Source of the DNA: Candidatus Poribacteria bacterium
Lineage (GTDB): Bacteria; Poribacteria; WGA-4E; WGA-3G
Direction of reading: 5' to 3'
DNA length: 64,000 bases
Assembly (NCBI GenBank): GCA_965242965.1
Contig: OZ251518.1
Coordinates: 2,464,001-2,528,000 of the forward strand
The position numbers and the translations under genes were made by a program. Positions 3,881 through 64,000 of the stretch are shown here, piece by piece. Positions within the stretch are counted from its first letter, which is position 1. Every line of letters begins with the position of its first letter. The notes under the pieces were generated by a model, which was given only the letters and a program-made list of their open reading frames with translations, was not told where the DNA came from and did not search any database.

Positions 3881-3899
3881 GTTCGGTAGGGGGAGTAGG

Positions 3900-6699: not shown

Positions 6700-6701
6700 G
6701 G

Positions 6702-8243: not shown

Positions 8244-8244
8244 G

Positions 8245-10711: not shown

Positions 10712-10713
10712 TA

Positions 10714-38157: not shown

Positions 38158-38291
38158 TTGACAAAAAATGCGCTATTTGCTAAAATAGAACCAGTTTTAA
38201 CGTTTTTAGGCGAATTTTCGCGTGAATTCGACCGGTTTCACGATTTTTCGCAAAAAAATGTTTGACATTTATTGCATTTTTCGTGTATAAT
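38158..38291 (+). promoter_or_regulatory. Two tandem sigma70-type promoters
   Basis: TTGACA-17-TAAAAT (38158-38186) and TTGACA-18-TATAAT (38262-38291). Confidence 0.65.
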
Positions 38292-39041: not shown

Positions 39042-39182
39042 TTGAAAAAATTCCTGATCTATAGCCTCATCATCGTGCTAGGTTGTCTGGTGCTCTATGC
39101 GAAGTATAAAGGGATCCCTATCATAGACAAGATTGTTCTACCGATTTTGGAATGGCTTGCCAAACTGGTGAGGGCCCTATAA
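39042..39182 (+). CDS. Small 46-aa membrane peptide
   Basis: AAGGAG RBS then TTG; 'KKFLIYSLIIVLGCLVLYAKYKG' TM segment followed by an amphipathic helix. Confidence 0.5.
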   Translation: MKKFLIYSLIIVLGCLVLYAKYKGIPIIDKIVLPILEWLAKLVRAL

Positions 39183-39399
39183 CCCACTCGTTCTTGAAAG
39201 TCTCAAATTCATGCGAATCCATGGATACGCTGAATCATATCTTGAAATGAGGTATTGGCTACAAGTTATCTCCAATGCACCTATGTAGTTGCCGAGCTCG
39301 CCTAATTCTGAACAGGTCAAACTCCGGCGAGTTTGACCTACAGACGCGAGACAAATCGACGTAATTCGGTATTACTAGAAAGGAGGTGGAAAAACTCAC

Positions 39400-39936
39400 G
39401 TGGAAAATGATCCAGTAAGCTTTGTCGAGTGGATGACAATCCTTATGAAAGCGCAAGAAGGATTAAGATTCCACTGGGAATTTTACACAACTGCATACCT
39501 CATCATGGTCGGCTGGTTGATGTCTATGGCAAAGAAGGGCTTAACTGTCCGCAATAAGTTGATCGTCACTGTAGTGTTCCTTCTTGTATCCGGTGGCTTT
39601 GTTAGCAATCTGAGGGACTATTTCTTGTTCTTAAATGCAGGATATAGACATTTAGAGGACAAGTTGCCCACCTATTTTAAGGTTGAAGAAGATTCATCTA
39701 ACAAGAAAGATGAATCTAGGAACATGGAAGATGAATTTCATGACATGTTTTCATACTACCGTTATGAAATTCCCGGTTATGGTGCGTTTGGCTTTTCAAT
39801 GATTTTGTTGATTTATCTGATCTGGTCTTTACCACCTGATAAATCAGAAAAACGATTGAGACGCAATTATAGGCCTCATCGGGTGAGAGAGGGCACAAAG
39901 CACGTCTCGCAAAAACTACGAAACCGGTTGCGGTAG
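39400..39936 (+). CDS. Hypothetical 3-TM membrane protein in an AT-richer segment
   Basis: 178 aa; AAGGAGG RBS and GTG start; three hydrophobic stretches. Confidence 0.7.
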   Translation: MENDPVSFVEWMTILMKAQEGLRFHWEFYTTAYLIMVGWLMSMAKKGLTVRNKLIVTVVFLLVSGGFVSNLRDYFLFLNAGYRHLEDKLPTYFKVEEDSSNKKDESRNMEDEFHDMFSYYRYEIPGYGAFGFSMILLIYLIWSLPPDKSEKRLRRNYRPHRVREGTKHVSQKLRNRLR

Positions 39937-40083
39937 TTATGAGGAAGTTTTACATTTGCGGTAGGGAATTTGCCGAACGTCAACGGCAAACTCTCCTGCC
40001 TCAATCCAGCCAAGCAGTTGGGCATAACTTGTGATTCCGACAGACGAGACATGGGCGGGCACACGAGCCCGCATCACAACCTC

Positions 40084-47151: not shown

Positions 47152-49677
47152 CTATTCCCTGAATTTCAGAGAATGTCCCTGCACATCCGCCACGATTTCC
47201 TTCCGATAAAACCCATAAGGAAATTGTGAATCATTGAGCAGAATACTGAGGGTATCCCTGACAGTTGAACGGAAGAACATCGTCTGTCCTCTGATTTTCA
47301 GCAGCATCGCGATGGATTCACCTGCCGAAAGCGTTAACTCTGAGGGGAGATGCGGGGTATAGGAAAATTGGGACTTTTCAAATCGCACCCCGAAAACCCT
47401 CAATTCCCTTTCGCCCACGTTGGTAATTACCAAATGTCTCCCATCAAGTTGAATATCGGCGCGGCTCTCAACGATATCGGTTGCGAATGGCAGAGGTAGC
47501 GTTATTTCCGAACGCCGGGCTTTCAGATGTAAGACACCCCGACTCTCTTCGGCGGAAAGTGGGACTTGTGGGTTCAGAATAAACTGACAGCCTTCCGTTT
47601 TTTCCTCAACTGTCAATAGTTGATGTTGTGTTAACTTTTCAGGAATTTCGGCGGTGCATGCAACGGGCTCGCCATCGCTGCGGCGCACGCTTATCTCAGC
47701 ATGTTGCGGTTTATCAAACAAGTAGACCCGGGGAAAATAGAGAACAGGCGGCTCTGGCTTGAGATGAACTATCTCGTATTTCGCGACGAAAGGTAGCACA
47801 CGGCGGTTTGCGAGATAGCAATTCGTTATCAGCGACGCATCGCATTTGCTGCGATAGGCGTTTGAAGGCTTATCGCTCAAAAGTTGCACAAGAGGTTCGG
47901 TTCGAATGCGCTCAAAGGGTGCTGTATTCTGAACGCGGAAATGGCCTTCCGCAAACCGAAGTACGGTGCTCGGCTGAATTGTTCCCTTCAGTTCCCCTTG
48001 CCCAGAAATCTCAAGCAAAAGCGGAACGGCTTCGGTTTTGCCTTGCTGAATTTGCGGAAATTCTAACGCTGTCTTCCGGAGAAGCGGGACTGCCCCCTGT
48101 GTCAGCCCCATCACGAAAATTGGGGCACGAAACGTCCTCGCCGCTTCTTCCGCTGTGCTTATCTCAAGCCACCCTAAATTCAGCCCTGGCTGGAGCTCCC
48201 CAGGCGAAAACACTATCGTCACATCCGTTTTGCCCGAACTTGGAAGCGTCACAGCCGCTGGCTCAACTCGCATCCACTCAACCAAAGAGCGGCAATGAAG
48301 TTCAAGGGGCCGTTTTGATTTATTGCGGAGGGTAACTCGCTGTTTAGGCATCGCTACTTGGATTTTGGAGGCGACACCGTGTGAACAACAGACTATCTCC
48401 TGTAACCGGCCCGGGTCAAGGCGCGTTTCACCGTCAATTTCAGCACGGAAACGATAGACACCGTGAGGAACGCTCAGCGTGATACTGAACCCCTCATCGC
48501 CTTTTTCAAGCAAAAGCGTCTGGGGTGTCCACCGATTAAAATCACCGATGAGATAACCGGCGCGGGCCGCCGCGGCTGGAAATCGGAAACCTTTGTCCTC
48601 AAAAATCAGCACGGTTGGAGGCGTTTCCTGTGCCGGGATCACTTCAACCGGCAGCGGTTTCCCTTTTGCGGGGAAGTCGTAGACAATTGGCGTATCTGGC
48701 TTGGCGGGCTCAACCGTCAGTTCGGTTTCCCCGACGATTTGATACCATCCCCAACCCGGCATTTTCTTATCTGCTACCTCAATTTCCGCAAAATTACGTC
48801 CCGGTTTGAGTTTATCGACGTTCACGGAAACAAGGAGACTGGCAGTGGCATACGGTTCAACACCGATTGTTCGTTGAACCGAGAGCCATTCAGCATCTGA
48901 GCGAACGCGTCCCGAAAACGGGTGTGACGTGATGTTCGCAATTTGGACTACCTGTTGGAATTCTAATTTCGATGCCTCTTTCGATGCCTTGGGGCTCGTT
49001 TTTGGCATCACGGCACCCGGCCGCCGCGAATTCAACTCATAGTGGCGTGCGCCTTGCGGTGTTTCAAGAACAGCGTCATATTTCGATGTCTCTTGTTGTG
49101 TCACTGTAAGCCGTGTTGGCGACACGCGTCCGAAGTCCCCGAGCAGGAAAAAATCAACTGGTTTTGCTTGCGTAGAAACCAACGATACCTTCCATGCCGA
49201 GATCTCGCCAAAGTTGATGAACTCTGGCACTGCCACTTTTGCACCCGAGTCTTCAGGGAGGCGAACTCCTAACAACACTTTGCTGAATGCTTTACTTTTC
49301 GCGTCGGAGACAAGGTTCAACTCGGCGATGCTCACGGCTGCGGGGTTCGGCAACTCCTTTGGGAATAGCCTCAGTTCAATTTCTAGCGGCTCCGAAGCCA
49401 CCTTTAACTTCGTGGGCCTCGATTTTTGCGTTCTTTTCACCCAGCTGCTGCAAGCACGAGGAATGCGCACGCGCTCCACCCGCAGCGTTCCGCCACCGAC
49501 ATTCCATGCACGAACCTTTACGGTAGGCGTTGGATGCTCAAACCTATCCGCGTAGATATCCGGTTCAGTGTAAAGATACGGTTCATCGATTGGCGTAACC
49601 GTGAACGGAAGTGCCGATGCATCTGAGGCTGGCGGCAGGTATAACTGACGATGGATTGCTTTGAGGTGGTGAATCAT
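47152..49677 (-). CDS. Large cytoplasmic protein with several Ig-like (BACON/ASH-like) domains and an internal CBM48/AMPK-beta-like glycogen-binding module
   Basis: 'VRAWNVGGGTLRV', 'SDAEWLSV', 'LVITNVGERELRV'; 'YLIGDFNRW...G.FSITLSVPHGVYRFRAEIDGE..LDP'; no signal peptide. Confidence 0.65.
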   Translation of the reverse strand: MIHHLKAIHRQLYLPPASDASALPFTVTPIDEPYLYTEPDIYADRFEHPTPTVKVRAWNVGGGTLRVERVRIPRACSSWVKRTQKSRPTKLKVASEPLEIELRLFPKELPNPAAVSIAELNLVSDAKSKAFSKVLLGVRLPEDSGAKVAVPEFINFGEISAWKVSLVSTQAKPVDFFLLGDFGRVSPTRLTVTQQETSKYDAVLETPQGARHYELNSRRPGAVMPKTSPKASKEASKLEFQQVVQIANITSHPFSGRVRSDAEWLSVQRTIGVEPYATASLLVSVNVDKLKPGRNFAEIEVADKKMPGWGWYQIVGETELTVEPAKPDTPIVYDFPAKGKPLPVEVIPAQETPPTVLIFEDKGFRFPAAAARAGYLIGDFNRWTPQTLLLEKGDEGFSITLSVPHGVYRFRAEIDGETRLDPGRLQEIVCCSHGVASKIQVAMPKQRVTLRNKSKRPLELHCRSLVEWMRVEPAAVTLPSSGKTDVTIVFSPGELQPGLNLGWLEISTAEEAARTFRAPIFVMGLTQGAVPLLRKTALEFPQIQQGKTEAVPLLLEISGQGELKGTIQPSTVLRFAEGHFRVQNTAPFERIRTEPLVQLLSDKPSNAYRSKCDASLITNCYLANRRVLPFVAKYEIVHLKPEPPVLYFPRVYLFDKPQHAEISVRRSDGEPVACTAEIPEKLTQHQLLTVEEKTEGCQFILNPQVPLSAEESRGVLHLKARRSEITLPLPFATDIVESRADIQLDGRHLVITNVGERELRVFGVRFEKSQFSYTPHLPSELTLSAGESIAMLLKIRGQTMFFRSTVRDTLSILLNDSQFPYGFYRKEIVADVQGHSLKFRE

Positions 49678-49693
49678 TAAAAATGCCTCCACG

Positions 49694-50729: not shown

Positions 50730-51860
50730 TTACTCTCCTCGTATCACTACGGGTTTTTGCACGATGGTGCCGTCTGCTATCTGTTGCAGGCCGGGTAAAA
50801 CCACTTCAACAATGGTGCCAGGTTCATCCCCTGTCTGCCGTGAATTTTGAATTTCATGCACACGCGAATCGGCTTTGGTGTGCCCCACCTCAATCGGAAC
50901 GAGTTCGTAGCCGACAGAACGCAGAAATTTATCCAAACGTTCAGACAGCTGCTCAAACGGGATGCATCTTGCCAGACAGTTGAAAAGCCTGTCTGCGATG
51001 AACTGAGGCAGAAAAGCGTTGTATTCCGCTATGTCTACCTCGCGGCCGAGTTCATAACCGATGAGCATCCCTTCAAACCGCGCCTCATAAAGAGCACAAT
51101 CACGCCGGACATTCTCAAGTTCGGCATCCGTGATGCGCTCAATCTCCACCGAAAGTGGCGGTGGCGAAGGTGGTGATTCCCCACGGATTGTTTTCAATTT
51201 CGCGATGATATCCTCTTCCCGGTATGTCAGAACGTCAACAAGTTTGAGGCGCGCCTCACCGGAACGCATAATCGCCGTTTTCCATTTCCCGATGTCGCTT
51301 GCCAGCAGATTTAAAAACACTAGCACAGTCTGACTCGGTGTCGGCGTTTCAAGCTCACCTAATTCAATCGGCTGTCCCTCGCGATAGGCAAGTGCCAATG
51401 CCGACACACTCTCCCGCGTTTTCTGGACGATTGCCTCTGCTTCTGCTTTTAATCCCTCGGTTTCATCGATGTCTGCTTTTTGAGAATCCAAGGGGGTATC
51501 TGGTTCGGGACTTGGCTGTTCGTTTACAAGTTGCGGCTGTTCAATACCCTCAGGTGCTTTGGCATCATCCAATAGTTTCTTTAAATCTGCTATGGGAGCC
51601 CAGAAACGTCTTGTTTTTGATTGGAATCCGAAACCGAATTTTTCCCACTTATCGAATCCCTCGGGCAATGGTACCGTCTTTGAATTGGAAGGAGATAACA
51701 AGAAATCCCCACGAAGCTTCTTGTCGCGCCCTTGGTGTTCTTGTGAGTAAATCTCAATTTTTTCTTCGCTTTGACCGCGGTTGCTGAAAACCAGAATCGC
51801 CTGCTCATGTTCCCAGCCGGCTGAGATAGAAATATGCTCAATTAGTGTCACTTGCCGCAT
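50730..51860 (-). CDS. GrpE-domain protein, soluble paralog
   Basis: C-terminal GrpE-like head 'LRSVGYELVPIEVG.....SRVHEI......EPGTIVEVVLPGL...DGTIVQKPVVI'. Confidence 0.75.
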   Translation of the reverse strand: MRQVTLIEHISISAGWEHEQAILVFSNRGQSEEKIEIYSQEHQGRDKKLRGDFLLSPSNSKTVPLPEGFDKWEKFGFGFQSKTRRFWAPIADLKKLLDDAKAPEGIEQPQLVNEQPSPEPDTPLDSQKADIDETEGLKAEAEAIVQKTRESVSALALAYREGQPIELGELETPTPSQTVLVFLNLLASDIGKWKTAIMRSGEARLKLVDVLTYREEDIIAKLKTIRGESPPSPPPLSVEIERITDAELENVRRDCALYEARFEGMLIGYELGREVDIAEYNAFLPQFIADRLFNCLARCIPFEQLSERLDKFLRSVGYELVPIEVGHTKADSRVHEIQNSRQTGDEPGTIVEVVLPGLQQIADGTIVQKPVVIRGE

Positions 51861-51877: not shown

Positions 51878-53032
51878 TCACTCCCCGCGAATCACCACCG
51901 GTTTTTGAACGATAGTGCCTCCTCCTCGCGCCTGCAGTCCCGGTGAAACCACCTCAACAATGGTGCCAGGTTCATCCCCTGTCTGCCGTGAGGCTTGAAT
52001 TTCATGCACACGCGAATCGGCTTTGGTGTGCCCTACCTCAATCGGAACAACTTCATGCCCGACGAGATGTAGGAATTTATCCATGCGTTCGGGGAGTGCC
52101 TCAAACGGCATGCATCTTGCCACGCCGTTGAAAAGCCTGTCAGTGATGAACTGCGGAAAAAAGGTATTATATTCGGCTACGTCTACCTCGCGGCCCTGTT
52201 CATAGCCGATGAGCATCCCTCCAAACTGAGCCACATAAACAGTGCACGCATTCCGGATGTCGCTCAACTCAAGCTCTGTTTTCGGTGCAGTTTCCACTGA
52301 AAGTGGCGGTGGCGAAGGTGGAGACTCGCCACGGATTGCTTTCAGTTTCGCTGTGATGTCCGCCTCCCGGTATGTCAGAACGTCAACAAGTCCAGGGTGT
52401 GCTTCACCCGATTGCACGACTTCCGTTTTCCACTTCCCGATGTCGCTTGCGAGCAGATTTAAAAACACTAGCACAGTCTGACTCGGTGTCGGCGTTTCAA
52501 GTTCGCCTAGTTCAATCGGTTGTCCTTCGCGATAAGCGCGCGCCAATACCGAGACATGTTCCCGCGCTTTTTGGACAGCCGTTTCTGCTTCTCGCTGGTA
52601 GGTATCTTCTGGCACCGCGTCCGATGCCGAATCCTGCGAAGCCACCTCCAGATTGTGGAGCCGCGTATTGGTTTGCGCAAGGGTATTTCGGATATTCTCC
52701 TGTGCCTCTTGCATTTCTTGAAATTCGCGGGTGTTGTCCCTGCCACCCTTTTCAACACGCTCTACCCTTTGCGTCAAATCTTGTCTCAGTTGGCGAGATG
52801 TGGCGTTCCACCCTTCTTTCAGTTCTCGCAACTCCTTCTGCTGCCGAAGCATCCGGAAACCGAGGAAGACAAGCGCGGCGAGAATAACTAGCACACCGAG
52901 GATGACAAGGAATACCCAGAACCCCGCTATTGTTGATTGTTCGGCGTTGTCCTGCGCATACCCGAACGAGGCGAGCCCAAACAGGACTAAGACGATTAGC
53001 ATTGTTGCGCATTTGAAACGGTGCGTTGTCAT
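51878..53032 (-). CDS. GrpE-domain protein with N-terminal signal/TM helices and a coiled coil
   Basis: Two hydrophobic segments, a coiled coil, then the same GrpE-like C-terminal half as 50730-51860. Confidence 0.78.
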   Translation of the reverse strand: MTTHRFKCATMLIVLVLFGLASFGYAQDNAEQSTIAGFWVFLVILGVLVILAALVFLGFRMLRQQKELRELKEGWNATSRQLRQDLTQRVERVEKGGRDNTREFQEMQEAQENIRNTLAQTNTRLHNLEVASQDSASDAVPEDTYQREAETAVQKAREHVSVLARAYREGQPIELGELETPTPSQTVLVFLNLLASDIGKWKTEVVQSGEAHPGLVDVLTYREADITAKLKAIRGESPPSPPPLSVETAPKTELELSDIRNACTVYVAQFGGMLIGYEQGREVDVAEYNTFFPQFITDRLFNGVARCMPFEALPERMDKFLHLVGHEVVPIEVGHTKADSRVHEIQASRQTGDEPGTIVEVVSPGLQARGGGTIVQKPVVIRGE

Positions 53033-53085: not shown

Positions 53086-54303
53086 TCAGGCCATCAAAAC
53101 CGGCACGGTAAACGCTACGTTCTGCGGTTCGCGTTCTTCAGGCAAATGGAGTGCAAAGGTGCCGTGGACAGAATCAGCCAAGGCAACCGAGAGGACAAAC
53201 TCCCTATTTTTCTTCTTTGCCGCCATATCTATCTCAAGCGTTGCGAGGTGATGCACATCGCTGCTATCTGTCAAAGACAAGCCGCAGAAAAGATGTATCT
53301 CAAATGGCGCGCGGGTTCCGCTGACGCGAAAGGCTTTTTTCCGTTGACACGGCGGAGCACACGCTTTCGGAATGAGTTCAACCCAACGTCCACCGGGTAA
53401 CCGCACACCGAAGCAGAAGTGATAGGTAAAGTGGAGCGGCTTTTCAAGGCTATTCGTCTCAAATTGCCGAACCAATTCCGCGCCGCCCAGAAGCGTAGCA
53501 TCTGCCTGTGGTTCCAAGAAGGTGGCACTACATCGCGCTTGCAACGATTTCATGATGGCACTGCCGGCAGAGGTTGCAAACGCGCCGGAAAAACCGACGA
53601 CAGCGGCATGTTTTGTCCCCACCTTTTTCAAGGATTGAAGGAAATCCGAGACAGGTTTCTCAGTATCCATGAAGAAGTCGGGATATCGCTGGATATCGCG
53701 CAACTCCACTTTCTCGCACGCCGTCTCCTGTTCACAAATCAGATGATAGAGCGTCACATCGTGCCGCGAAAAATTGAAGAGAAATGCCTGAAGTTCGCCT
53801 GAAGCGGCGAGGTTTTCCTGCCACGCCGTCCGATAAGAAAAAGCGAGACACAAACTCTGCGTGAGACAACTCCGAAGCACCGCGTTTGAGGCATTGAACG
53901 CTGGTTTCTCAATTCGCTTGAATGCTTTCCGAAGTTGCTGCCGATGCACAAATTTCCACTGATACGGCGTGATAACATATACCGACATCGCTTCTTGCGG
54001 TAGTAATTGCCGATGGAAAATTTCCTCCAAAAATGCGTGGAAGAGGCACTCCAAAGTTGGTGCGTCTGTAATCTCCTTGAGATGCACATCCAATTCTGTG
54101 AACCGGACTTCTGTCGGGCGGTTTGAGTCAAGCCGGTCAAACGCCTCCCCGAAACATGCCGATAAGGTGCCATCAGCTGTCTGCTGGAAACCTACCTCCC
54201 ACGGCAGATTCAGTTCATCGCGGGCTTCAAACCCATCGTCGCTTATCATCCCACCCTGAATTTCGGGTGCGGAAAGATCGATGATGCATACGCGTTTCTG
54301 CAT
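53086..54303 (-). CDS. Degenerate, probably ATPase-dead Hsp70-like protein
   Basis: 'CIIDLS' for IGIDLG; 'VITPYQW...HRQQLRKAF' for VITVPAYF...QRQA; 'ATLLGGA' for AVAxGAA; a substrate-binding beta-domain-like C-terminus; the GTT and GGG phosphate motifs are absent. Confidence 0.6.
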   Translation of the reverse strand: MQKRVCIIDLSAPEIQGGMISDDGFEARDELNLPWEVGFQQTADGTLSACFGEAFDRLDSNRPTEVRFTELDVHLKEITDAPTLECLFHAFLEEIFHRQLLPQEAMSVYVITPYQWKFVHRQQLRKAFKRIEKPAFNASNAVLRSCLTQSLCLAFSYRTAWQENLAASGELQAFLFNFSRHDVTLYHLICEQETACEKVELRDIQRYPDFFMDTEKPVSDFLQSLKKVGTKHAAVVGFSGAFATSAGSAIMKSLQARCSATFLEPQADATLLGGAELVRQFETNSLEKPLHFTYHFCFGVRLPGGRWVELIPKACAPPCQRKKAFRVSGTRAPFEIHLFCGLSLTDSSDVHHLATLEIDMAAKKKNREFVLSVALADSVHGTFALHLPEEREPQNVAFTVPVLMA

Positions 54304-54341
54304 GAGTTATCCAATTCCGACTTACAGCGGTGAATTGCTGA

Positions 54342-57128
54342 TTAAATTTCATCAACAAACGCAGGGTCCGCTCGCTGAACAGTCGATTTATATTCCTGGC
54401 CATCAACAAGCGCGATTAATTCAATTTCGCCGCTGGTTTTGACTGCCATTTTCAGACGTGCCTTTCTTAACGCAGCGTCGGGAACATCCTCCGGCAACTC
54501 TAGTGTGTAACTAGCGACTTGCGCGGTTTCTCCCAAGTTCTTCGCCGTGCCGAAGTGTTCTCGGACATCAACAAAAGTTGTCCCAGCAGGAAGCGGGAAA
54601 TCTGTTGTCCCAAAACTCTCGTCGGGTATCACTTTTCCCTGCGAGATGATTTCGTCAAAGACAGGCTTTCCCCCAGAAGACAACTTTACGACACCGAGCC
54701 GAGCTCTTGTCCGTTCCACATTGACGGGCCTGATTCTACCTCGGCCTGGCATCGTTTGGGAAAGGCTAAACTGTGCTGCACCGATGGCGACACACGCCTT
54801 GGGGTGCTCGGCAAGGTGAATGTCAACCCGGGTCTGGTATTTTTCCTGAAAGTGGGCACCCATCATCTCCTTCACCAACGGCATTTTAGATGACTGCCCG
54901 GCGAGGACGACGATATCAGGCGGGGCACTGCCACAGTCAGCAATCATCTCGTCAATCGCATCGAAGGTTTCATTCAGTTCATGTTGTATAAGCGTCTGCA
55001 ATTGCTCGCGTGAGAGTTCCACGTTCATTTCAGGTTGTGTGGACGTTTCAAGGGAGTCTTCTGCATTTCCAATGTGCGGGGCAGCAGGTGTATGCTGCCT
55101 CAGCAAGTCTTCAAGCATCCTGACGTTATCTCCTACCTTAACCTGCAGGTGACCTAAAAACCGGGACGTTACTTCTGACTTCTCGCTGAGCCCCTTTTTC
55201 ATCTCTTCGGCGGCATCGTAAACGAAAGCGTTTGCTCGGGTGGCCCTATCAACGGCTGGTTCTCCAGAAGGCTGCAGGATTTTCCGCCGCTTCAGATACG
55301 GGATGTCAAACCGGATGTCAGGATTGACACACCGAATCAGTTTCCTGCATTCAGCGAGAATGAAGTCAACGATTGCCTGCGTCACATCGTCTCCACCGTA
55401 TTTCGGATTGCCGCCGCGGACAAGCGGTTCAATCTGAATTTCGTTACCGGTGTTCGTCACCTGTGATAGAACGATGTCAATAGTGCCGCCCCCGAAATCG
55501 TAAACCATCAGTTTGGAATTCTCGCGCGGTGGTTTTTCACGGTGCTGAAAAATGGTGCCGATGGAAGCCGCCGAAGCTTCATCAATGAGGATAAGCTCTG
55601 TGATGCCGTTCTTCTCAAACGCGAGCCGAAGATCTTCTCGCTGCTGCAGCGTGAACATCGTCGGGTAGGTGGCAACACACCGTGTAATTTTTGACTGTGA
55701 TGTCAGCGTATCCAGATGCGCTTCCGCTGCCGTTATGATATGTTTGAGGATATCGGCCGCCACGTCACGCGGTTGCAACTCCAATTCGCGCGGAAATTGA
55801 CGATGCCATTGATACCCTAACCAACGTTTCACGGACGTGATGTAGTAAGCACCATCAATTTCACTTGTCCGATAATTTTCTGCAGCCGCTCCGACTGAAT
55901 ATGACGTTTCGTTTGTCGGGCGGCTGTGGTAGACAATTGCCGATGGGATAATCTCCGGAGAACTTGCTTCACCTCCCAACGGAATGAGTTTCGATTGGAA
56001 GGTATCTAAATCAATGTAGGCACAGCAAGAATTCGTGGTGCCGAAGTCAATAGCGACGTAATGTGGATACGCCTCCAACTTCTCTACCATGACGTTCAGC
56101 AGCTCATCCCGATACCGCGGGGATGTCTCACAATTGGAGATGATAGTGAACCCGATGGGATAGGCACCGGGCTCAATGCCGACTCCAGAAATTAATACCT
56201 CCACATTTTCGTGACTGCCGCCTTCAATTTCTATCGGATACTTGACATCGGGAAGGCTGACGAGGCCGGGCTGTCCTTCAATGTCAATCTCCTGGATTTT
56301 CAATAGAGACTCGCCTTGGTTCTGAAGGGTTAAAGTCTGGGTTCTCTTTCGTTCTTGGGTTATTTCCAGCGTCGCCTTCGGCACGAACAACTTCGGCGGT
56401 TCTGGCTCCACCTCTGCGTGTATGCGAACTGTCTGAGCAATCGGTTCGGCGAGTCCGTGGAGATAAAACTTCAAGGGTTCTTCATTAACCCCATCGCGGA
56501 GTTCCCTGCAATCAACCACAAGGCGAACGCGTTTCGCTGCGTTTCCTTCTTTATAGCGTCCTTTCATGAAGCGGACGCTCTTAATTTTCCCCGGCGAGTA
56601 ACCAACGTTGCTGATGTCAAATTGACTCCGCGTCACCTCAACCCGGAGTTCTATATCCATCGTCTCCGTGCCTTTACGGTAGCGCGCCACGCTTGGATTC
56701 GGCAAGAGTTTAAAAGCAGGCTCAGGCAATGCCCGAAGAGGTATCGATTTCTCCTCAAGGTTGGATAATCCTTCCTGAACGCGGACGCGGATGTCTTCAG
56801 GTTGCAGCGTTAACTTCCCCGCGTCTACGCGTATGGCAATTGCGGCAGATTGTCCGGCGTTCACTTTAAACGGCTGCGCATACGCGGTATCCACAAGTTG
56901 ATGCTTCGTCTGAATTGGTTGAAAAGTCATCGGGCAGCTGCCGGTGTTTTCGACAAGCAGCGTCACTTCGCGAGTGGCCGTGTCAGTCTTTATGGGGCTG
57001 TAAAACAGCGGTTCCTCCTGCCATCGCACTGAAAAATCGAAGGTTGAACAACCGCAATAGCCACAATGCCGCTCATGCGCGAAGATTTCCCAACCGACGT
57101 TGCAGTTTGAACACACCGTGCCTGCCAT
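54342..57128 (-). CDS. Hsp70/DnaK-family ATPase fused to an N-terminal Zn-ribbon and Ig-like domains
   Basis: 'CSNC...HCGYCG'; Ig-like 'LLVENTG' and 'LTLQNQGESLLKI'; 'IDFGTTNS', 'SVKRWLG', 'DEASAA', 'YDFGGGTIDI', 'LAGQSSKMP', 'CVAIGAA'. Confidence 0.9.
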   Translation of the reverse strand: MAGTVCSNCNVGWEIFAHERHCGYCGCSTFDFSVRWQEEPLFYSPIKTDTATREVTLLVENTGSCPMTFQPIQTKHQLVDTAYAQPFKVNAGQSAAIAIRVDAGKLTLQPEDIRVRVQEGLSNLEEKSIPLRALPEPAFKLLPNPSVARYRKGTETMDIELRVEVTRSQFDISNVGYSPGKIKSVRFMKGRYKEGNAAKRVRLVVDCRELRDGVNEEPLKFYLHGLAEPIAQTVRIHAEVEPEPPKLFVPKATLEITQERKRTQTLTLQNQGESLLKIQEIDIEGQPGLVSLPDVKYPIEIEGGSHENVEVLISGVGIEPGAYPIGFTIISNCETSPRYRDELLNVMVEKLEAYPHYVAIDFGTTNSCCAYIDLDTFQSKLIPLGGEASSPEIIPSAIVYHSRPTNETSYSVGAAAENYRTSEIDGAYYITSVKRWLGYQWHRQFPRELELQPRDVAADILKHIITAAEAHLDTLTSQSKITRCVATYPTMFTLQQREDLRLAFEKNGITELILIDEASAASIGTIFQHREKPPRENSKLMVYDFGGGTIDIVLSQVTNTGNEIQIEPLVRGGNPKYGGDDVTQAIVDFILAECRKLIRCVNPDIRFDIPYLKRRKILQPSGEPAVDRATRANAFVYDAAEEMKKGLSEKSEVTSRFLGHLQVKVGDNVRMLEDLLRQHTPAAPHIGNAEDSLETSTQPEMNVELSREQLQTLIQHELNETFDAIDEMIADCGSAPPDIVVLAGQSSKMPLVKEMMGAHFQEKYQTRVDIHLAEHPKACVAIGAAQFSLSQTMPGRGRIRPVNVERTRARLGVVKLSSGGKPVFDEIISQGKVIPDESFGTTDFPLPAGTTFVDVREHFGTAKNLGETAQVASYTLELPEDVPDAALRKARLKMAVKTSGEIELIALVDGQEYKSTVQRADPAFVDEI

Positions 57129-57139
57129 ACCCGAATCCC

Positions 57140-60100
57140 CTATTTGAGCCGCTTAAGATCTACGTCTGCAACGGAGAACGGCTTAGGTGGTGCCGCCTGC
57201 TTGTCCGGCGCAGATTCAGGCGGCGGTTCTGAGGCAACTGCCTCAGTCGGTTCAGATGTCTGACCGGATTCCGTTCCCGGTTCGCCTTCAGCCCAAACAG
57301 ATTCGTCCTCCGCGGTGCTACTGCTTGAGGCAGTGGGATGTCGCTGCACATTTTCGCTTTCTGCTTCAGCGAAAGCACCAGAGATATGTTCAGCTTCTTC
57401 GGAGGAATGTTCTTCATAGCCTTCAGCCGATGTGTTCGGATTTGCCGTATTCCCGCCGATGGGGTTTGGGGGAACAGGGGGATTTTCAGCGGCGGCCGCA
57501 GGTGCCGCGTACGGCTGTTGTCCAGTCGTGTGGAAATGTGCGTAGACTATACCATCTGAATCGGGCGGTTCCACATTGCCTTCAGGATAGACTTCGTCCA
57601 AAAACGCCTTGTAAAAATCACTCAGTTTCCGGCGCGCGTCAAGGTTAGCAACATCCTTGAGCAATTGATTAATGACTCCATCGACAGTCTCACGTCCCAA
57701 CTGCGAGAATTTTGACTGAACCGCCTTGATGAACTCATCGTAAGAGGACTCATTTTCTTTACGCGAGAGCCGCTTAATTCCCCCCGGGTCATCGGACAAG
57801 CCAAGCGTTTGAACGAGCCCATCAACATAATACTCAAACACATATCTGCCGTGATGCAGCCGAAACACATCCGAAAACGCCTCGCTGTTGACACGACTGC
57901 AGATTTCAGGCACCAAACGCGCTAAAGCCCGACACCATCGCGTGAGCATATCGCCTTTGTGATGGAGCTCCAGGTCAAACAGATCTGGATTTTGATGAGT
58001 TCGATGCCCGTAAGCCGTCTGGCTCTGCTCAAAATGTTGCTTAAGCGTTTCGTAGGCTTCCAAGTCATCCAGCGCAAACCCGGCCTCCTCTTGGTAAAAA
58101 AAGAGGAGGTGGTCAACAGAAGATGGGCCGAGCCGCGGAAAGCCAAGATTCGGGCCGGTTAACTCGTGTTGTAGATTCGGCAATGCGTGCCCAGTCGGAT
58201 CGTGCCCGAAGATTATCTGCGGGGGTATTGCAAGCGCAAAGGGTTGATAGACAGAGCGGAACGTCTGATACGGATTCGAGCGGCCGGCTAGATTCCCAAT
58301 GTCGTTGCTTTTTTCGGTTAAAAGGGCCTGCGCTTTTGTAACGACAGCATCCACCTGAATTTGCGCTAACGCCAATTGGCGATAGGTTTCTGTCATTTGC
58401 CGCGTGATGTCTTCCGAGCTTCGTTCTAAAAACTCGCGCATCGTTTTCCCATTGAGCAATCTACTGTGAGTGTCCATGCTGGCGATTTGGTGGCGTAGCG
58501 CGTCAGCGTCAACATCAATCCGGTTTTGCGGGTTATTCGCGACGATTTTCACACACTCCGATTTAGGGGCGTTGACAGCAAAGTCGTAATCCGCCTTGAA
58601 TTTCCGAATACAGTTCCCCAGATGCGTCGCGACCTGGTCTAACCGCTGTTTAATCGTTTGTGGCGGATTGGGGCCGTCGGTATGCCTCGGTTGCACGCCA
58701 AAACCGAGCATCTCCCGAACCTCTTGCAAAACCGGCCGCAAAAAGTAATTCCGCAAACTGAGGTAAATACTCTCCCTGTCTCCGGAAATCAACCGGCAGT
58801 AGATGTCAATTAACGCTTTTCGATGCGCTTCGACCGATTGGGCTTGCAGGCCGATGAGTTTCGTCCACCGATTGTTCTCCGCGCGATGCATCGGCTCGAA
58901 ATCCAACCCATCAAGGTTTAAAGTGGACAACCGGTCTGGACAGGAATCAATCGTGTCCTTGATTTTTCCGTCTAGTGCTTGAAAGAACGCGCGGACATCC
59001 CCGAGGCCGTACGTGCCTTGGAAATCAATGCGGGCTAACTGGTTGTTCAAAGCAGCCCCAATTGCCTCGCGGAACTTCTTTTTACACTCAACCACCTGCA
59101 TGTCCATTAACTCAAAATATTGGCCGCCCTGGGCAAACTTGTGATGGAAAGGACCGCCTTCACCGGGTGGGAACGCTTGCATCAGGGTTTCCAATTGCCG
59201 AGATGTTGTGTTTTCCTTACCGAATTCTTGTCGCGCTTGACTCAGGTGTGACTCAATGCGGCTCTTGAGTGGCGACTGTCCTTCGGGATGGGTTAACACA
59301 TCCATGTTCCCTCTTAACATCGCCTTCCATTCCTGGTCTGCGTCCGCCACGCTGGTAGCCTTAGGGACATGCGCGCCTCGCCAATTTTCGCATAATTTCT
59401 CGCTGATTAAACATGCAGATGCGCTGGCGATACGATATTTGGGATACCACACCGCTGTCAGGCCAAAACTAGCGAGACATCTCACCATCATGGCAATCTC
59501 ACCTTCTTGCACGGGTTTTAAGTTCCCGTAACCAGGGTAACTTTCCCAATCGGTGCGGATGGCTTCTTTTTGGCCGTCAGTATCTCCAGCGGCCTCGGCG
59601 AAGAGATTCAGGGCAACCATCAGGTTCAAGCCCTCCTCATCAAATCCCCCGCCCGGGAGTGTAAACTTAAGGAGAGGGTTTTTGCCGCTACGGGAGACAA
59701 GCATCGCGTAGTCAAAAGGTTTTTGGGTAGGATTTCCTACCCCGTGCCCACTTGGAAAGGTAACATTATACCTCGTATTGGAGTGGTTATAGTAATTTAA
59801 TTCGGAAAGGCTCGCGTAGCAATTTGCGGCCCGAACAGCAGTATCTTGGTGTCCGGTCGCTTGCTCTTTGTCATACATCGTAAAAATGCCATAAATCCTG
59901 TTGGCATCGTTACCACTCAGAAGATTTCTGAAAAAGTATGCGATGTCAATGAGCATTCCGCTACAAGAACCGCCGCAGAGGGAGCCAACGACATAGACAT
60001 TAATGGCATCTGAGTCTACGAGTCGTCCATCGGGCACTTGCCCTTGGGCCGTGTAGTGCTGGTTCAGAATATCAACCGTCTCCTGCGTTGTCGCCGGTGC

Positions 60101-60535
60101 GATGATGGCATCTCGCGCCCGAAAGAACGTGTTCTGCATCTGCTCCCAATTTTCCCAGAGACACAGCCTTCCTGCCATCCGAATATTGCTGGCACCGGCT
60201 TGAAAACTTTGGGCAAAGTCCAAGAGCTGCGGATTGAGCCACTCCGCCAGCTGCGGTTTGTGAAGTGGATGACCGGGTGTCAGGCGGAGACGAATCGGGC
60301 CGGTGTCATCAATCGTCGCGCTGACAACCGTGATTTGCTCGTAATCTTTTTGTCTCTCCGTTGACATCAGACTCGGGTCTTCCCCTTTCTCATCGCCATC
60401 TGTCTCAATAGCAATATAACGGAAGATAGGCAGCCCGGCGCGCGTATATTCCTCAGCCATGAGTTGGCGGAGGCTCTTTAGAATTTTTGTGCCGGTTGTT
60501 CCAAGTCCGACAAATAGCGTTGGTTTAATCATCAT
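57140..60535 (-). CDS. Large tubulin/FtsZ-like protein (Tubulin_2 / FtsZl1-type) with a helical extension and a disordered acidic tail
   Basis: 'LFVGLGTTGTKIL', 'IAIETD', 'GASNIRMAGRL', signature-loop variant 'GSLCGGSCSGMLID', 'ANCYASLSEL', 'PFD'; start ATG 60535 with AAGGAG RBS. Confidence 0.87.
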   Translation of the reverse strand: MMIKPTLFVGLGTTGTKILKSLRQLMAEEYTRAGLPIFRYIAIETDGDEKGEDPSLMSTERQKDYEQITVVSATIDDTGPIRLRLTPGHPLHKPQLAEWLNPQLLDFAQSFQAGASNIRMAGRLCLWENWEQMQNTFFRARDAIIAPATTQETVDILNQHYTAQGQVPDGRLVDSDAINVYVVGSLCGGSCSGMLIDIAYFFRNLLSGNDANRIYGIFTMYDKEQATGHQDTAVRAANCYASLSELNYYNHSNTRYNVTFPSGHGVGNPTQKPFDYAMLVSRSGKNPLLKFTLPGGGFDEEGLNLMVALNLFAEAAGDTDGQKEAIRTDWESYPGYGNLKPVQEGEIAMMVRCLASFGLTAVWYPKYRIASASACLISEKLCENWRGAHVPKATSVADADQEWKAMLRGNMDVLTHPEGQSPLKSRIESHLSQARQEFGKENTTSRQLETLMQAFPPGEGGPFHHKFAQGGQYFELMDMQVVECKKKFREAIGAALNNQLARIDFQGTYGLGDVRAFFQALDGKIKDTIDSCPDRLSTLNLDGLDFEPMHRAENNRWTKLIGLQAQSVEAHRKALIDIYCRLISGDRESIYLSLRNYFLRPVLQEVREMLGFGVQPRHTDGPNPPQTIKQRLDQVATHLGNCIRKFKADYDFAVNAPKSECVKIVANNPQNRIDVDADALRHQIASMDTHSRLLNGKTMREFLERSSEDITRQMTETYRQLALAQIQVDAVVTKAQALLTEKSNDIGNLAGRSNPYQTFRSVYQPFALAIPPQIIFGHDPTGHALPNLQHELTGPNLGFPRLGPSSVDHLLFFYQEEAGFALDDLEAYETLKQHFEQSQTAYGHRTHQNPDLFDLELHHKGDMLTRWCRALARLVPEICSRVNSEAFSDVFRLHHGRYVFEYYVDGLVQTLGLSDDPGGIKRLSRKENESSYDEFIKAVQSKFSQLGRETVDGVINQLLKDVANLDARRKLSDFYKAFLDEVYPEGNVEPPDSDGIVYAHFHTTGQQPYAAPAAAAENPPVPPNPIGGNTANPNTSAEGYEEHSSEEAEHISGAFAEAESENVQRHPTASSSSTAEDESVWAEGEPGTESGQTSEPTEAVASEPPPESAPDKQAAPPKPFSVADVDLKRLK

Positions 60536-60564
60536 GCGCTCCTTCTGGATGCACTCTGGGTTCA

Positions 60565-60960
60565 CTACCTCTTTTTAGGGTTAGGATTCTCAACCCGCAT
60601 TTTTTCAGAGGACACGTTGGCTCTGGTTCCTGTCGCCCCTTGGGTTGATAGGGACACTAGCAGACAAACGTCCACAATCAAAATCAGCACATAGAGTGCC
60701 AGATAGATAGGGACATACCACCACTCGGCGAGCCGCGGGATGGCGCGGAGACAAATCCAGATGGACAGAACCGCTCCTCCAAATATGTGAGCCCCGAGCG
60801 CGATGCCCCACGCGAGCGTTGTCGCTCGTTCAATCCCGATTTTGTTCATCAATAACCGGGCAAATACAAACGCGAAGAACCACACGAAACCGTATGCGGC
60901 AACGTAAAGGTAAACAGGCAAAATCAACGGATCTACGAAAAAGTCAGCGATTATCTCCAT
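60565..60960 (-). CDS. Small 3-TM membrane protein
   Basis: 131 aa; three hydrophobic helices; AAGGAG RBS. Confidence 0.78.
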   Translation of the reverse strand: MEIIADFFVDPLILPVYLYVAAYGFVWFFAFVFARLLMNKIGIERATTLAWGIALGAHIFGGAVLSIWICLRAIPRLAEWWYVPIYLALYVLILIVDVCLLVSLSTQGATGTRANVSSEKMRVENPNPKKR

Positions 60961-61137: not shown

Positions 61138-63069
61138 CTACCTGTCCAGCGGGTTGGAACCGTTGCCCTGTTCTACATCAATAGGAAAAGATTCCGGACC
61201 CTTCTCCTGTCCTCTCCCAATCTCCTCTGTCACGATTTCAAAATCAACATGAACCTGCTCGTCATCGCCGCGCGTTAAAATTAGCCGCTCTTGAGTCTCT
61301 AAGTGCCTGCCTTCATTGGCATCGGCATCCTCAAAAAGCAGAATCTCCGCGTTTTCGTCGCAGTACAAGAAAGCGGCACTTCCGACATCAAAATGCAAGC
61401 CAGCGTCGTCGTCTTGTCCAAACGCGAGAATTGTCTCTTTCGTCAGTGTAAAGTATCGCTTCTCGCCGAGGGGCGTTCCGGCTGCAGTGACTTGCGCTAA
61501 CCCAATCTGGTGCTCAATCTGCGGCCCTGTTATCCATGCTTTTCCTCGGCGCAGGAGGAAAAACAGCGCGCCGATTAGCAGAATAAGGAGAGGAATAACC
61601 AATAGCCACATCGGAAAACCGCCACCCCCGCCTTGGAGTTTAAACGGCACACCGATTGTCGCAAATCTCGGGGTCCCCTCGTAAGTATACTCAATATCCA
61701 ATGCCAACTTGTTGCCATACCAATCCAAGTCGTTCTCTTTCGGCACCTTGACGCTGAACGGCGTGTCTAAACTATCCGGTGTGTTTGACACGCTCGCAGC
61801 GCAAAGTTTACGGCCGTCTTTATACTGGACGTGTGAGCGGACCTGGGTGATTTGGAAAGCACCTTTGTTAGGGCTCTCACTCTGAACAACGAGTTTTACG
61901 GAATACGCGTCCTCCGAGAAAACTAGTTCCAACTGTTTGGCTGGTTGACGCGGATTCTCCTGATGGGAGATATAGACGCTATCAATCACCGCTGTGTAGT
62001 TCATGAGCGGCACTGGATGGACTTTGTCCACGCCGTCGTAGGTATAGGTGACTTCAAGTTTCAACTGATTGCCGGGAGTAGCGAGCTCAGGATTGGCGGG
62101 GAACGGTATCCGGAGCGCGTAAGGCGGCGAACTGCTACCTAGTGGGACCGGGTTGAGTTGGAGTGCCTCAACTTCGTTGTCTTGGTTCGCGACTTGAAGG
62201 GGCTTGCGGTTGTTATCGACAACTTCCACGGTAAGGCTGTCCAATTGAAATTTCGCCTTCTGGGAGTTTTTAGTGTCAATGACAAGGGTTTCGCTGATAA
62301 ATTGCCCCGCGTTGTCCTCTGAAAGGGACAACTTTGTGGCGGGCTCATCGGGCTTCATCTGATTGGCGATGAAAATGGTATCGATGTCGCGTCGTTTCTG
62401 AAGCTTGCGAACCTCGATTTTGACGTGGTTATTGACGAGAATCCCTAAGACGAGTGGCGAGTAGTATTCTTCCTCGATTTCGGCGAGCCGCTTCAGGATG
62501 GAGGCGATGCCGGTATCGCTTTTGCCGCTGTTATCAATGTCACCATCTGTCACGAAGAGCCAATAGGTTTCGTCGTCTCCTTCGCGGTATAACTCGTTGT
62601 AGACTTCGGTTTCGGCGCGGAGGAGGTAAGAGACGAGGCCGTAGAAAGATTCCTTCATCCGCGTCGGATTGGGCAGCTGCTTCTGAAATTCCGCCTTGTT
62701 CACCGGTTTTCGGCTGATTTTTTCGTTCCGCTGCTTTGCATATTCGGCGTAAGTCAAGACATCGCCGTTTTGGTAGAGCGGTTTGCTGACGTAAGCAGCA
62801 TCGCCTTCCTTGATGTAGGTGTCGTCAATGTCGCGCAGCGGATGCGCGGCGTTGGTGAAAAGCAGGTTTGTCACGTAGTCGTTGACGCGCCGAATGTCAT
62901 CGGATTCCATATAGGTAGTGTAGGTATCCTTGCCTGTCTTGAGGCGGAACATGCTGCCGGACACATCGTAGATGACGATGATGTGTTTGGCGGCGACAGG
63001 CGCGGCACAGATTATTATCAAAACGAGCAGAACGGCGAAGAGCATTGGGTAGCGTGATACATTCGTCAT
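61138..63069 (-). CDS. vWA-domain single-pass membrane protein with a possible degenerate FHA-like cytoplasmic domain
   Basis: Signal peptide; MIDAS 'YDVSGSM' and 'FVTDG'; two beta-rich repeats; TM 'MWLLVIPLLILLIGALFFLL'; beta-rich cytoplasmic tail. Confidence 0.82.
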   Translation of the reverse strand: MTNVSRYPMLFAVLLVLIIICAAPVAAKHIIVIYDVSGSMFRLKTGKDTYTTYMESDDIRRVNDYVTNLLFTNAAHPLRDIDDTYIKEGDAAYVSKPLYQNGDVLTYAEYAKQRNEKISRKPVNKAEFQKQLPNPTRMKESFYGLVSYLLRAETEVYNELYREGDDETYWLFVTDGDIDNSGKSDTGIASILKRLAEIEEEYYSPLVLGILVNNHVKIEVRKLQKRRDIDTIFIANQMKPDEPATKLSLSEDNAGQFISETLVIDTKNSQKAKFQLDSLTVEVVDNNRKPLQVANQDNEVEALQLNPVPLGSSSPPYALRIPFPANPELATPGNQLKLEVTYTYDGVDKVHPVPLMNYTAVIDSVYISHQENPRQPAKQLELVFSEDAYSVKLVVQSESPNKGAFQITQVRSHVQYKDGRKLCAASVSNTPDSLDTPFSVKVPKENDLDWYGNKLALDIEYTYEGTPRFATIGVPFKLQGGGGGFPMWLLVIPLLILLIGALFFLLRRGKAWITGPQIEHQIGLAQVTAAGTPLGEKRYFTLTKETILAFGQDDDAGLHFDVGSAAFLYCDENAEILLFEDADANEGRHLETQERLILTRGDDEQVHVDFEIVTEEIGRGQEKGPESFPIDVEQGNGSNPLDR

Positions 63070-63070
63070 A

Positions 63071-64000
63071 TCAGTCTCCTAATAGATTCAGGCAAACGAG
63101 CCGGGCTTTGCACAGAATAAAGAGTTTGTTACTATATTGAATAGGCGCGGCAACGGGAGCAGGATTATCTGGTTTCCCCATGGCCAGTGATTGATGCAAC
63201 ACGGCGTGAGTGGGTTCAAGTCGCTGGATGGTAAGTCCAGCGGAATGCGCGGAATAAATTCGGTTGTTCACGGCAATTGAGCGGTGTGGGACAAACCGGG
63301 CTTGCGGGTTGTTCTGAGGTAAACTCTTCCCTGCGGAGAAAACAGCGTCCCCATTACTATCGCTCAGGTAGATATAGAGTGTTTGTCCCCCGCGGTCGGA
63401 CAGGAAGAGCCGCTGTCCATCGGTGAGCGGCGGATGAACAAAGAGGTTCAGATGTTGTTCTACATTTGAAACTTCGTCTAAAGTTGCCACGGGGGACAGT
63501 CGTTTGGTTCGCGGTTCATAACGGGCAAGACTGCGCCTTCGGCTTTCGGTATGCAAGGCTTCAAAATAGACGCTACTGCCGAGTGATGTAGGCGAGGAGA
63601 AGAATAGCGAGGGATAAGACTTGACGACGCTGTTAAAGGCTCCCTTCTCAATGTTAATCGCGAAGATACGTCCCTGTTTGCAGGTGAAAACGACATGCTC
63701 GCCACAAAGCGTGGGAGACGTGGGACCGTTGTCGACGTTGAAGAAAGCGTGCGGGATGTAGTGTCCGTTGCGGCTAACTAGTTCTAAGAACAATACGCCT
63801 TGTTGCGTGCCGACAATCATGGTTGGTTTGCCGGCGACATTGCATTTTAGCGGAGCGCATTCAGGCAGCGGTTGAATTTGGGCGGCATCCACTCCTCTTA
63901 TCTCAACGGGTTCCGATTTCCCATTTAAAACGGAGGTTTTGTGAATGCCGCCTGCAACGACGTAATAGAGATGGAGTCCATGGTAGATAGGCGTGCAGCC
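63071..64000 (-). CDS. PQQ/BamB-like beta-propeller protein, truncated by the window edge
   Basis: Frame is open from 64000 ('GCTPIYHGLHLYYV...'); repeats 'SPTL..EHVVF', 'SSPT....VYF', 'PPLTDGQRLF', 'APIQYSNKLF'. Confidence 0.72.
   Translation of the reverse strand, partial: GCTPIYHGLHLYYVVAGGIHKTSVLNGKSEPVEIRGVDAAQIQPLPECAPLKCNVAGKPTMIVGTQQGVLFLELVSRNGHYIPHAFFNVDNGPTSPTLCGEHVVFTCKQGRIFAINIEKGAFNSVVKSYPSLFFSSPTSLGSSVYFEALHTESRRRSLARYEPRTKRLSPVATLDEVSNVEQHLNLFVHPPLTDGQRLFLSDRGGQTLYIYLSDSNGDAVFSAGKSLPQNNPQARFVPHRSIAVNNRIYSAHSAGLTIQRLEPTHAVLHQSLAMGKPDNPAPVAAPIQYSNKLFILCKARLVCLNLLGD

Follow-up and report, generated by a model that had tools for sequence, protein, structure and literature searches.

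Why would a bacterium keep, directly beside an Hsp70 chaperone with intact ATPase motifs, a second protein that appears to share the Hsp70 fold but has none of the phosphate loops? The question is raised by a 64,000-nucleotide (nt) stretch of the genome of a sponge-associated bacterium, Candidatus Poribacteria (assembly GCA_965242965.1, contig OZ251518.1, positions 2,464,001 to 2,528,000; referred to here as the window), in which two open reading frames (ORFs) on the minus strand, 38 nt apart, encode an Hsp70 fusion protein of 928 amino acids (aa) and a protein of 405 aa. An initial annotation, made from the letters of the window alone, had described the two as an active Hsp70 and an ATPase-dead homolog, and had likened them to the Hsp70-Hsp110 and Ssz1-type partnerships of eukaryotes. 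Absent from that annotation was the wider setting: a 12-gene operon, also encoding a ZorAB-like stator and a tubulin-like protein, of which the pair forms the chaperone core. With moderate confidence, we read the lidless Hsp70 as an ATP-driven engine working with GrpE-like factors and the 405-aa protein as a non-catalytic, Ssz1-like holder or adaptor, the two together forming the chaperone module of an accessory operon.

Judged by its sequence, the 928-aa protein is an Hsp70 with intact ATPase motifs and an unusual architecture. It matches the Pfam HSP70 family (PF00012) over the cut-off (E 6.3e-30), and the motifs picked out in the initial annotation (DFGTTNS, the lysine of SVKR, the glutamate of DEASAA, and DFGGGT) are all present, with D361-F-G-T-T365, K434, E517, and D544-F-G-G-G-T549 invariant in an alignment of 29 homologues. 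Using phmmer, residues 358-594 were aligned to residues 5-213 of DnaK 2v7y and residues 701-836 to residues 265-389, which places the ATPase motifs of the fusion onto the same motifs of DnaK and extends the second segment into the initial strands of the beta substrate-binding domain (SBD-beta). The front end is also as annotated: the Zn-ribbon cysteines (C6, C9, C22, C25, and C27) are invariant in the same 29 homologues, and residues 52-119 are recognized by Pfam as a HYDIN-type Ig-like domain, one of presumably three Ig-like domains in the protein. C-terminal to the DnaK-aligned part, which ends at residue 836, 92 residues are left, which could hold the remainder of the beta domain but not a lid of ~100 residues; the fusion is therefore probably lidless, as the annotation had held. 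Outside the operon, the host genome also encodes a canonical DnaK and a canonical GrpE, so that the chaperone set of the operon is an additional, specialised one.

The same genome contains, outside the window, a second Hsp70 (398 bits), which is directly preceded by a second GrpE (47.9 bits); its third long Hsp70-like ORF is an open frame of 1231 aa that scores lower against Hsp70 (146 bits). Extra Hsp70/GrpE genes outside the window lie at G000:C1:327310-330011 and G000:C1:783621-785288.

The 405-aa protein is not found by any family model. It matched no Pfam or NCBIfam family (E ≤ 0.1) and no PADLOC family, a profile of 34 close homologues returned nothing relevant from the PDB sequences, and a Pfam Hsp70 match was absent from all 17 divergent relatives scanned; sequence-based surveys would therefore miss this pseudo-Hsp70. 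The check proposed in the initial annotation, structure prediction followed by a Foldseek search, did find an Hsp70 fold. The AlphaFold2 model (pLDDT 87.5, pTM 0.86) retrieved 43 listed rows, all of which are Hsp70, Hsp110, or Ssz1 chains, with DnaK 7kru_A as the best match (E 6.9e-16) at ~10% identity. By VIA-align, residues 3-403 of the model correspond to residues 2-505 of DnaK 7krv_B (Z 18.2, 365 residues), and residues 2-294 to the DnaK nucleotide-binding domain (NBD) alone (Z 17.8, root-mean-square deviation 3.8, 268 residues); the scores for Sse1/Hsp110 (17.6 for 2qxl_B and 17.4 for 3c7n_A) and Ssz1 (16.6 for 4gni_A and 16.3 for 6sr6_A) are similar. The NBD-like part comprises ~290 residues vs. 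383-393 in DnaK NBD chains, and in the model lobe IIB appears to be nearly absent, with a single helix (residues 215-228) following the third IIA strand. As modelled, then, the 405-aa protein is an Hsp70-fold protein consisting of an NBD and a beta domain, and is, like its neighbor, lidless.

To place the motifs, the 405-aa family was compared with the fusion family (alignment A2) by hhalign, using either the close 405-aa homologues (A1) or a diverse alignment of 24 sequences to which divergent members had been added (A4). A1 gave no relation to A2 (probability 0.3-0.4%). A4 was aligned with the Hsp70 part of the fusion family co-linearly over 392 columns, weakly (E 0.0012, probability 19.5%) and in agreement with the predicted fold. 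In this alignment D9-L-S-A-P-E14 of the 405-aa protein is paired with D361-F-G-T-T-N of the fusion, P113 with P489, Q149 with the catalytic E517, and N176-F-S-R-H-D181 with D544-F-G-G-G-T549, while K434 of the fusion faces a gap. Neither GTT nor GGG loops occur in any of the 24 members (0/24); the position of Q149 is occupied by Glu in many of the divergent ones. The observation, originally made by eye, that the 405-aa protein follows the Hsp70 layout without both phosphate loops thus agrees with Foldseek, VIA, the hhalign mapping, and the family count, and we infer, with good support from these sequences, that it is ATPase-dead.

A protein that belongs to no sequence family and is ~10% identical to Hsp70s might be regarded as the decaying remnant of a duplicated Hsp70, the outcome that the initial annotation had named as fatal to its proposal. 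On the sequence data, we rejected this explanation as hardly credible. The gene is full-length and without internal stops in 20/20 loci (the window counted), the ratio of nonsynonymous to synonymous substitution rates (dN/dS) is 0.19-0.34 in 22 pairs with >68% identity, and the predicted fold is confident. There are 190 homologues at E ≤ 1e-3, and the 120 listed span 97-100% of the query. The dN/dS of the fusion is similar where computable (0.20-0.32), and in 127 of 153 pairs the 405-aa protein is better conserved than its active neighbor. The gene is under purifying selection, and the best conserved stretch of its product, residues 271-360, belongs to the SBD-beta-like part.

The two genes are also inherited together. 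A scan of one genome per species yielded 19 loci (18 titled Poribacteria and one “uncultured bacterium”), and in 19/19 the fusion gene is located upstream of the 405-aa gene on the same strand, directly adjoining it in 18. A GrpE-like gene occurs downstream of the 405-aa gene in all 17 loci reaching far enough, and a tubulin-like gene upstream of the fusion in all 16 that are long enough. Among 176 Poribacteria genomes the 405 family is present in 23 (18 of the 133 high-quality ones) and the N-terminal 350 residues of the fusion in 22, and these same 22 all carry the 405-aa gene, ~3 kb away on the same contig. The pair is patchy within genera (6/40, 8/65, and 4/20 genomes), and is an accessory element. 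In G037, a 73% complete genome from another family of the phylum, a 424-aa 405-like protein, also without Gly-rich loops, is encoded ahead of GrpE-like, Ig-rich, and ZorA-like genes.

Several features of individual loci may be recorded here. Two contigs of one metagenome-assembled genome (L016 and L017) carry two copies of the pair on separate short contigs (G151:C495, C226), and one fusion copy has an internal stop (L017; “1 TAA” at G151:C495), which could be due to strain mixture or a broken second copy. Between L013 (8680-9848) and L019, a segment of 1.2 kb covering fusion residues ~477-866 is ~67% identical or unalignable, between flanks of 94% and 91% DNA identity; in that pair the fusion is consequently only 65% identical vs. 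94% for the 405-aa protein. This segment has the look of a cassette in the Hsp70 domain that has recombined or diversified. The locus L007 (OZ246979.1, positions 460-11224) has two tandem tubulin-like genes.

A profile search of 1.84 billion representatives with the 405-aa family recovered only 30 proteins at E ≤ 1e-3, some of them just 16-25% identical to the 405-aa protein, and in the homologue search with A4 the best 120 of 200 were close Poribacteria proteins only. In the ESM Atlas, 30 of the 30 nearest clusters carry DUF5716_C and belong to Bacillota (score 0.95; 173-178 of 256 features in common; 438-455 aa). The Pfam model of this domain (PF18980) matches neither the 405-aa protein (E ≤ 0.1) nor the gene in a six-frame search of the genome (E ≤ 1), and our literature search returned no relevant paper mentioning DUF5716. 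As a lead from ESM features only, DUF5716 may be another hidden group with the Hsp70 fold.

The pair lies in a tightly packed operon of 12 genes (Table 1), with gaps of 1-53 nt from the 131-aa membrane gene through the last gene. Three of the genes extend upstream past the edge of the window. The order is ZorA-like, ZorB-like, 467-aa Zn-ribbon, 643-aa, 131-aa, Tubulin_2, Hsp70 fusion, pseudo-Hsp70, 384-aa, 376-aa, LapG-like, and Ig/CBM48, and the genes past either end are unrelated, with an enolase superfamily member and a TPR protein downstream. A ZorA-like gene is found directly upstream of the operon in 5/5 other genomes checked, and is also linked in G037, in a different gene order. The 643-aa protein matches neither a Pfam family (vWA included) nor a PDB sequence, so that the vWA reading is based on the DxSGS motif recognized by eye, and the 131-aa protein has no match in Pfam, NCBIfam, or PADLOC. 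By eye, the 344-aa protein starts with a signal-like stretch and has a hydrophobic segment at its C-terminal end, and its match to 4fgo_A, a periplasmic chain, covers a GGGDCED motif. We take 4fgo to be a structure of LapG, and a LapG-like protease suggests that regulated proteolysis on the outer face of the membrane belongs to the system. The operon proteins yielded no nuclease domain, and Tubulin_2 was the one GTPase family matched among the 12. Sequencing runs from 11 studies (20 rows) hold part of the stretch, with no RNA run listed.

Table 1. The twelve genes of the operon in their order of transcription. Positions refer to the window unless prefixed with L020.
Feature	Position	Strand	Basis
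ZorA-like protein, 710 aa	L020:2128-4260 (upstream of window)		Pfam MotA_ExbB; PADLOC ZorA3 2.4e-16
ZorB-like protein, 232 aa	L020:1472-2170 (upstream of window)		OmpA; PADLOC ZorB3 7.9e-29
467-aa protein, N-terminal Zn-ribbons, rest beta-rich (3' part of gene in window)	63071..64000; L020:72-1475	minus	weak Pfam Zn_Ribbon_1
643-aa membrane protein, N-terminal DxSGS (vWA/MIDAS-like) motif	61138..63069	minus	synteny; motif by eye
131-aa small membrane protein	60565..60960	minus	synteny; hydrophobic segments by eye
Tubulin/FtsZ-like GTPase (FtsZl1), 1141 aa, long C-terminal extension	57140..60565	minus	Pfam PF13809 (Tubulin_2) E 3.5e-47, residues 17-383
Zn-ribbon, Ig-like, and lidless Hsp70 (NBD, SBD-beta) fusion, 928 aa	54342..57128	minus	Pfam; invariant motifs; DnaK alignment
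Pseudo-Hsp70, 405 aa: predicted NBD ~2-290 (lobe IIB reduced), SBD-beta-like ~295-403, no phosphate loops	53086..54303	minus	AlphaFold2; Foldseek; VIA; motif mapping
Membrane-anchored coiled-coil protein, 384 aa, C-terminal half probably GrpE-like	51878..53032	minus	AlphaFold2; Foldseek; VIA; N-terminal hydrophobic segments by eye
376-aa paralogue without N-terminal membrane segments	50730..51860	minus	75% identity with the 384-aa protein (C-terminal 245 residues)
Putative LapG-like (transglutaminase-like) cysteine protease, 344 aa	49694..50728	minus	PDB 4fgo_A E 1.2e-4; weak NCBIfam LapG E 0.0093; synteny
Ig-like repeat/CBM48-like protein, 846 aa, last operon gene	47152..49692	minus	Pfam HYDIN Ig-like 2.9e-6, AMPK1_CBM 9.1e-6; synteny

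A few kb downstream of the operon, the plus strand encodes a 542-aa WD40 beta-propeller protein (40243-41871; Pfam WD40 2.9e-57). The GC content falls to 0.446 at positions 38001-40000, vs. 0.49-0.58 in the rest of the window.

The two genes that follow the pseudo-Hsp70 gene bear on how the pair might work, as we consider it fairly probable that their products, the 384-aa and 376-aa proteins, are GrpE-like. Their C-termini resemble GrpE by eye. Searched with Foldseek, an AlphaFold2 model of residues 140-384 of the 384-aa protein (pLDDT 86) had GrpE in each of its first ten rows (E 0.019-0.44, with a probability of up to 1.00 and, over 100 columns, 24% identity). VIA matched residues 110-245 of this model to GrpE chains (Z 5.6-6.6, root-mean-square deviation 12-14), and, among the matches listed, only these GrpE-type ones reach the beta domain; a wide VIA search was filled by helical bundles over residues 34-186 and is uninformative for that domain. 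The C-terminus of the orthologue in G037 matches Pfam GrpE below the cut-off (E 0.0064). Of the 30 ESM Atlas neighbors of the 376-aa protein, the one that belongs to a named family is GrpE (rank 17, score 0.87), which we treat as a lead only.

From the folds, motifs, purifying selection, co-inheritance, and operon structure established here, we infer the loss of ATPase activity, the partnership, its client, the exchange role of the GrpE-like proteins, and the role of the whole system as follows. The operon probably spans the cell envelope. The 928-aa protein would be an ATP-driven remodeller, its Zn-ribbon/Ig-like front end probably docking onto another component, and the GrpE-like proteins, one of them membrane-anchored, would likely be its nucleotide-exchange factors. 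The 405-aa protein, which keeps the IA/IIA core and the beta domain but neither the phosphate loops, the catalytic Glu, nor most of lobe IIB, would most likely act as a nucleotide-independent holder or adaptor beside the active Hsp70, similarly to Ssz1, rather than as a catalyst or an exchange factor of the Hsp110 type. Its conserved beta domain may hold or present a client, or the protein may cap or position the active enzyme. Likely clients are the assembly of the tubulin-like FtsZl1 or the membrane proteins of the operon, which would be remodelled by the pair, and the presence of a ZorAB-like stator points to a coupling with the proton gradient and the cell wall.

Several observations weigh against this model. 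The evidence for a physical pairing of the two proteins is genomic linkage, and a complex prediction (fusion residues 350-928 with the 405-aa protein, each with its alignment) scored 0.00 in two runs in which the controls were not folded, and so has no weight in either direction. The sequence link between the 405-aa family and Hsp70 is weak, and the motif mapping leans on one weak alignment together with the fold. No DnaJ family match was found among the 12 operon proteins, J-proteins encoded elsewhere in the genome not having been searched for. For the GrpE-like family, Pfam GrpE (PF01025) matches 0 of the 24 aligned members at E ≤ 1, a profile of this alignment retrieved nothing relevant from the PDB sequences, and hhalign against 10 Poribacteria GrpE proteins (those passing a motif filter, out of 25 loci) gave a probability of 0.3%. 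In L007 a GrpE-like gene is inserted between the fusion gene and the 405-aa gene, and in G037 the gene upstream of the 405-like gene is on the opposite strand, with no adjoining Hsp70 on the 11.5-kb contig. Judging from G037, the link of the 405-aa gene to the GrpE-like gene may be as tight as its link to Hsp70. These arrangements, and the GrpE-like gene downstream in every locus that reaches far enough, would suit an alternative in which the 405-aa protein has its main partners in the GrpE-like proteins or other parts of the operon, serving, for instance, as a nucleotide-free docking site or decoy for the GrpE-like factor or as an adaptor for the tubulin-like protein, and adjoins Hsp70 through operon membership only. 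We regard this as rather unlikely: GrpE contacts lobes IB and IIB of DnaK (1dkg), but the 405-aa model seems to have almost none of the latter lobe, the 405-aa gene and the fusion gene are inherited together, in an identical set of 22 Poribacteria genomes, and an Hsp70 gene could lie elsewhere in G037, given the incompleteness of this genome and its short contig.

Two further alternatives would give the 405-aa protein a nucleotide-dependent role. It is quite improbable, in our view, that it is an Hsp110-like exchange factor opening the cleft of the 928-aa protein via an NBD-NBD heterodimer. Sse1/Hsp110 chains are among its best structural matches, and a 2026 review in FEBS J proposes an Hsp110-like co-chaperone role for the DnaK derivatives of prokaryotes (bacterial NBD-containing DnaK paralogues; PMC13580251). 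However, DnaK chains score equally well or better by VIA, so that the similarity in fold does not point to Hsp110 in particular, and Hsp110 needs bound ATP and lobe II contacts, whereas all 24 members of the 405-aa family are without phosphate loops and lobe IIB is much reduced; the operon, moreover, already encodes probable GrpE-like factors. That the 405-aa protein is a second active ATPase, still binding or hydrolyzing nucleotide in a non-canonical way, is highly improbable. An acidic or amide residue is mostly kept at the first phosphate-loop position (D9; D/N/E in the family), both S11 and E14 are kept in every one of the 34 close homologues, and the Glu of divergent members at the Q149 position stands in a context that by eye resembles the catalytic-Glu motif of Hsp70. 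Yet in 24/24 members there is no Gly-rich loop at either phosphate motif, the gap opposite K434 leaves that lysine without a counterpart, and the model suggests that lobe IIB, which forms the adenosine pocket, is down to about one helix.

As for the role of the whole operon, the ZorAB match, the patchy distribution, and the swapped 1.2-kb segment of the fusion are hints of defence, against which stand the stable synteny and the lack of a nuclease or known effector among the operon proteins. A bolder proposal, which we offer as speculation and consider unlikely, is that the operon is a fourth Zorya-type envelope-sensing system, in which a ZorAB-like proton-driven stator controls an FtsZl1 polymer that is assembled or disassembled by a dedicated Hsp70 machine, without a nuclease, the machine being an obligate active/pseudo heterodimer with membrane-tethered GrpE-like factors. 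If this is true, the active/inactive Hsp70 pairs of eukaryotes would have their first counterpart in bacteria. In any case, the locus is a testable one, with an active Hsp70 and a motif-less Hsp70 copy maintained by selection side by side, along with probable GrpE-like factors of their own, and it ties this module to two poorly understood machines, the FtsZl1 tubulin-like family and the Zorya-type stator. Working out the pair could show whether these widespread operons serve defence, envelope remodelling, or another function.

The closest functional analogies are the eukaryotic pairs, Ssz1-Ssb/RAC and Hsp110-Hsp70, in which an atypical Hsp70-fold protein is likewise encoded with an active Hsp70, and to which the 405-aa model is structurally similar. 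Hsp110 and Ssz1 bind ATP. They also keep lobe IIB, whereas the 405-aa protein has neither the phosphate loops nor most of that lobe. In addition, both partners here are lidless and belong to an operon that also encodes GrpE-like proteins, a tubulin-like GTPase, and a membrane stator. Of the twofold analogy drawn in the initial annotation, the Ssz1 half is the closer one, as a structural or adaptor role would fit better than that of an exchange factor; the Hsp110 half fits poorly because of the missing phosphate loops, the reduced lobe IIB, and the probable GrpE-like factors in the same operon. Within the open-access literature that we searched, no bacterial pseudo-Hsp70 was found.

With respect to its membrane and tubulin-like components, the operon resembles the FtsZl1-vWA-OmpA operons for which Makarova and Koonin (2010) predicted a role in membrane remodelling (PMC2875224). 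Shared features are a Tubulin_2 protein with a long C-terminal extension, an OmpA-family gene, and many membrane proteins. Hsp70, DnaK, and GrpE do not occur in the main text of that paper, although its table of neighboring genes has single DnaK and GrpE rows and two MotA/ExbB genes; a pseudo-Hsp70 is not described in the accessible part, and the 643-aa protein here, as mentioned, matches no Pfam vWA model. The first two genes match ZorA and ZorB models, and at 710 aa the ZorA-like protein is a long one, like ZorA itself; the patchiness of the family (23/176 genomes) is a further similarity to Zorya. The other 10 operon proteins, by contrast, match no ZorC, ZorD, ZorE, ZorF, ZorG, or other PADLOC model (E ≤ 0.01) beyond weak coiled-coil matches, and a tubulin-like GTPase and an Hsp70 module are present in place of a nuclease. 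In the available portions of the Zorya papers, three subtypes are distinguished and these chaperone and tubulin components are not mentioned (PMC11946911; 10.1101/2023.12.18.572097; PMC11890865), and the open-access search yielded no relevant paper joining Zorya with tubulin-like, FtsZ-like, or Hsp70 proteins.

With respect to its chaperones, the operon is similar to the GAP1-N2 DO-GTPase conflict systems predicted by Kaur, Burroughs, Iyer, and Aravind (2020), in which, according to the accessible text, one theme combines HSP70 and GrpE, with or without a second HSP70-only gene, and a separate theme includes tubulin (PMC7159879). Likewise known from computation only, these systems overlap in their parts with ours: an Hsp70 of a specialised kind accompanied by a GrpE (here a probable GrpE-like protein), in some cases another gene derived from Hsp70, homologues of tubulin, membrane parts, Zn-ribbons, and Ig/FNIII-type repeats, as well as vWA domains, for which the 643-aa protein is a candidate here. 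They are reported there from Actinobacteria and Firmicutes, with no link to MotA or a stator in that text, and a DO-GTPase or GAP1 is not recognizable among the 12 operon proteins in Pfam scans, which used no model of either; no Walker A motif is seen by eye in the 467-aa protein. Further, their second Hsp70 keeps the ATPase domain without the peptide-binding domain (PMC7159879, accessible text), whereas the reverse is found here, with the motifs lost and the beta domain kept. The locus is thus a variation on the computationally predicted FtsZl1-vWA and Hsp70-GrpE systems, and the pseudo-Hsp70 is its most distinctive element.

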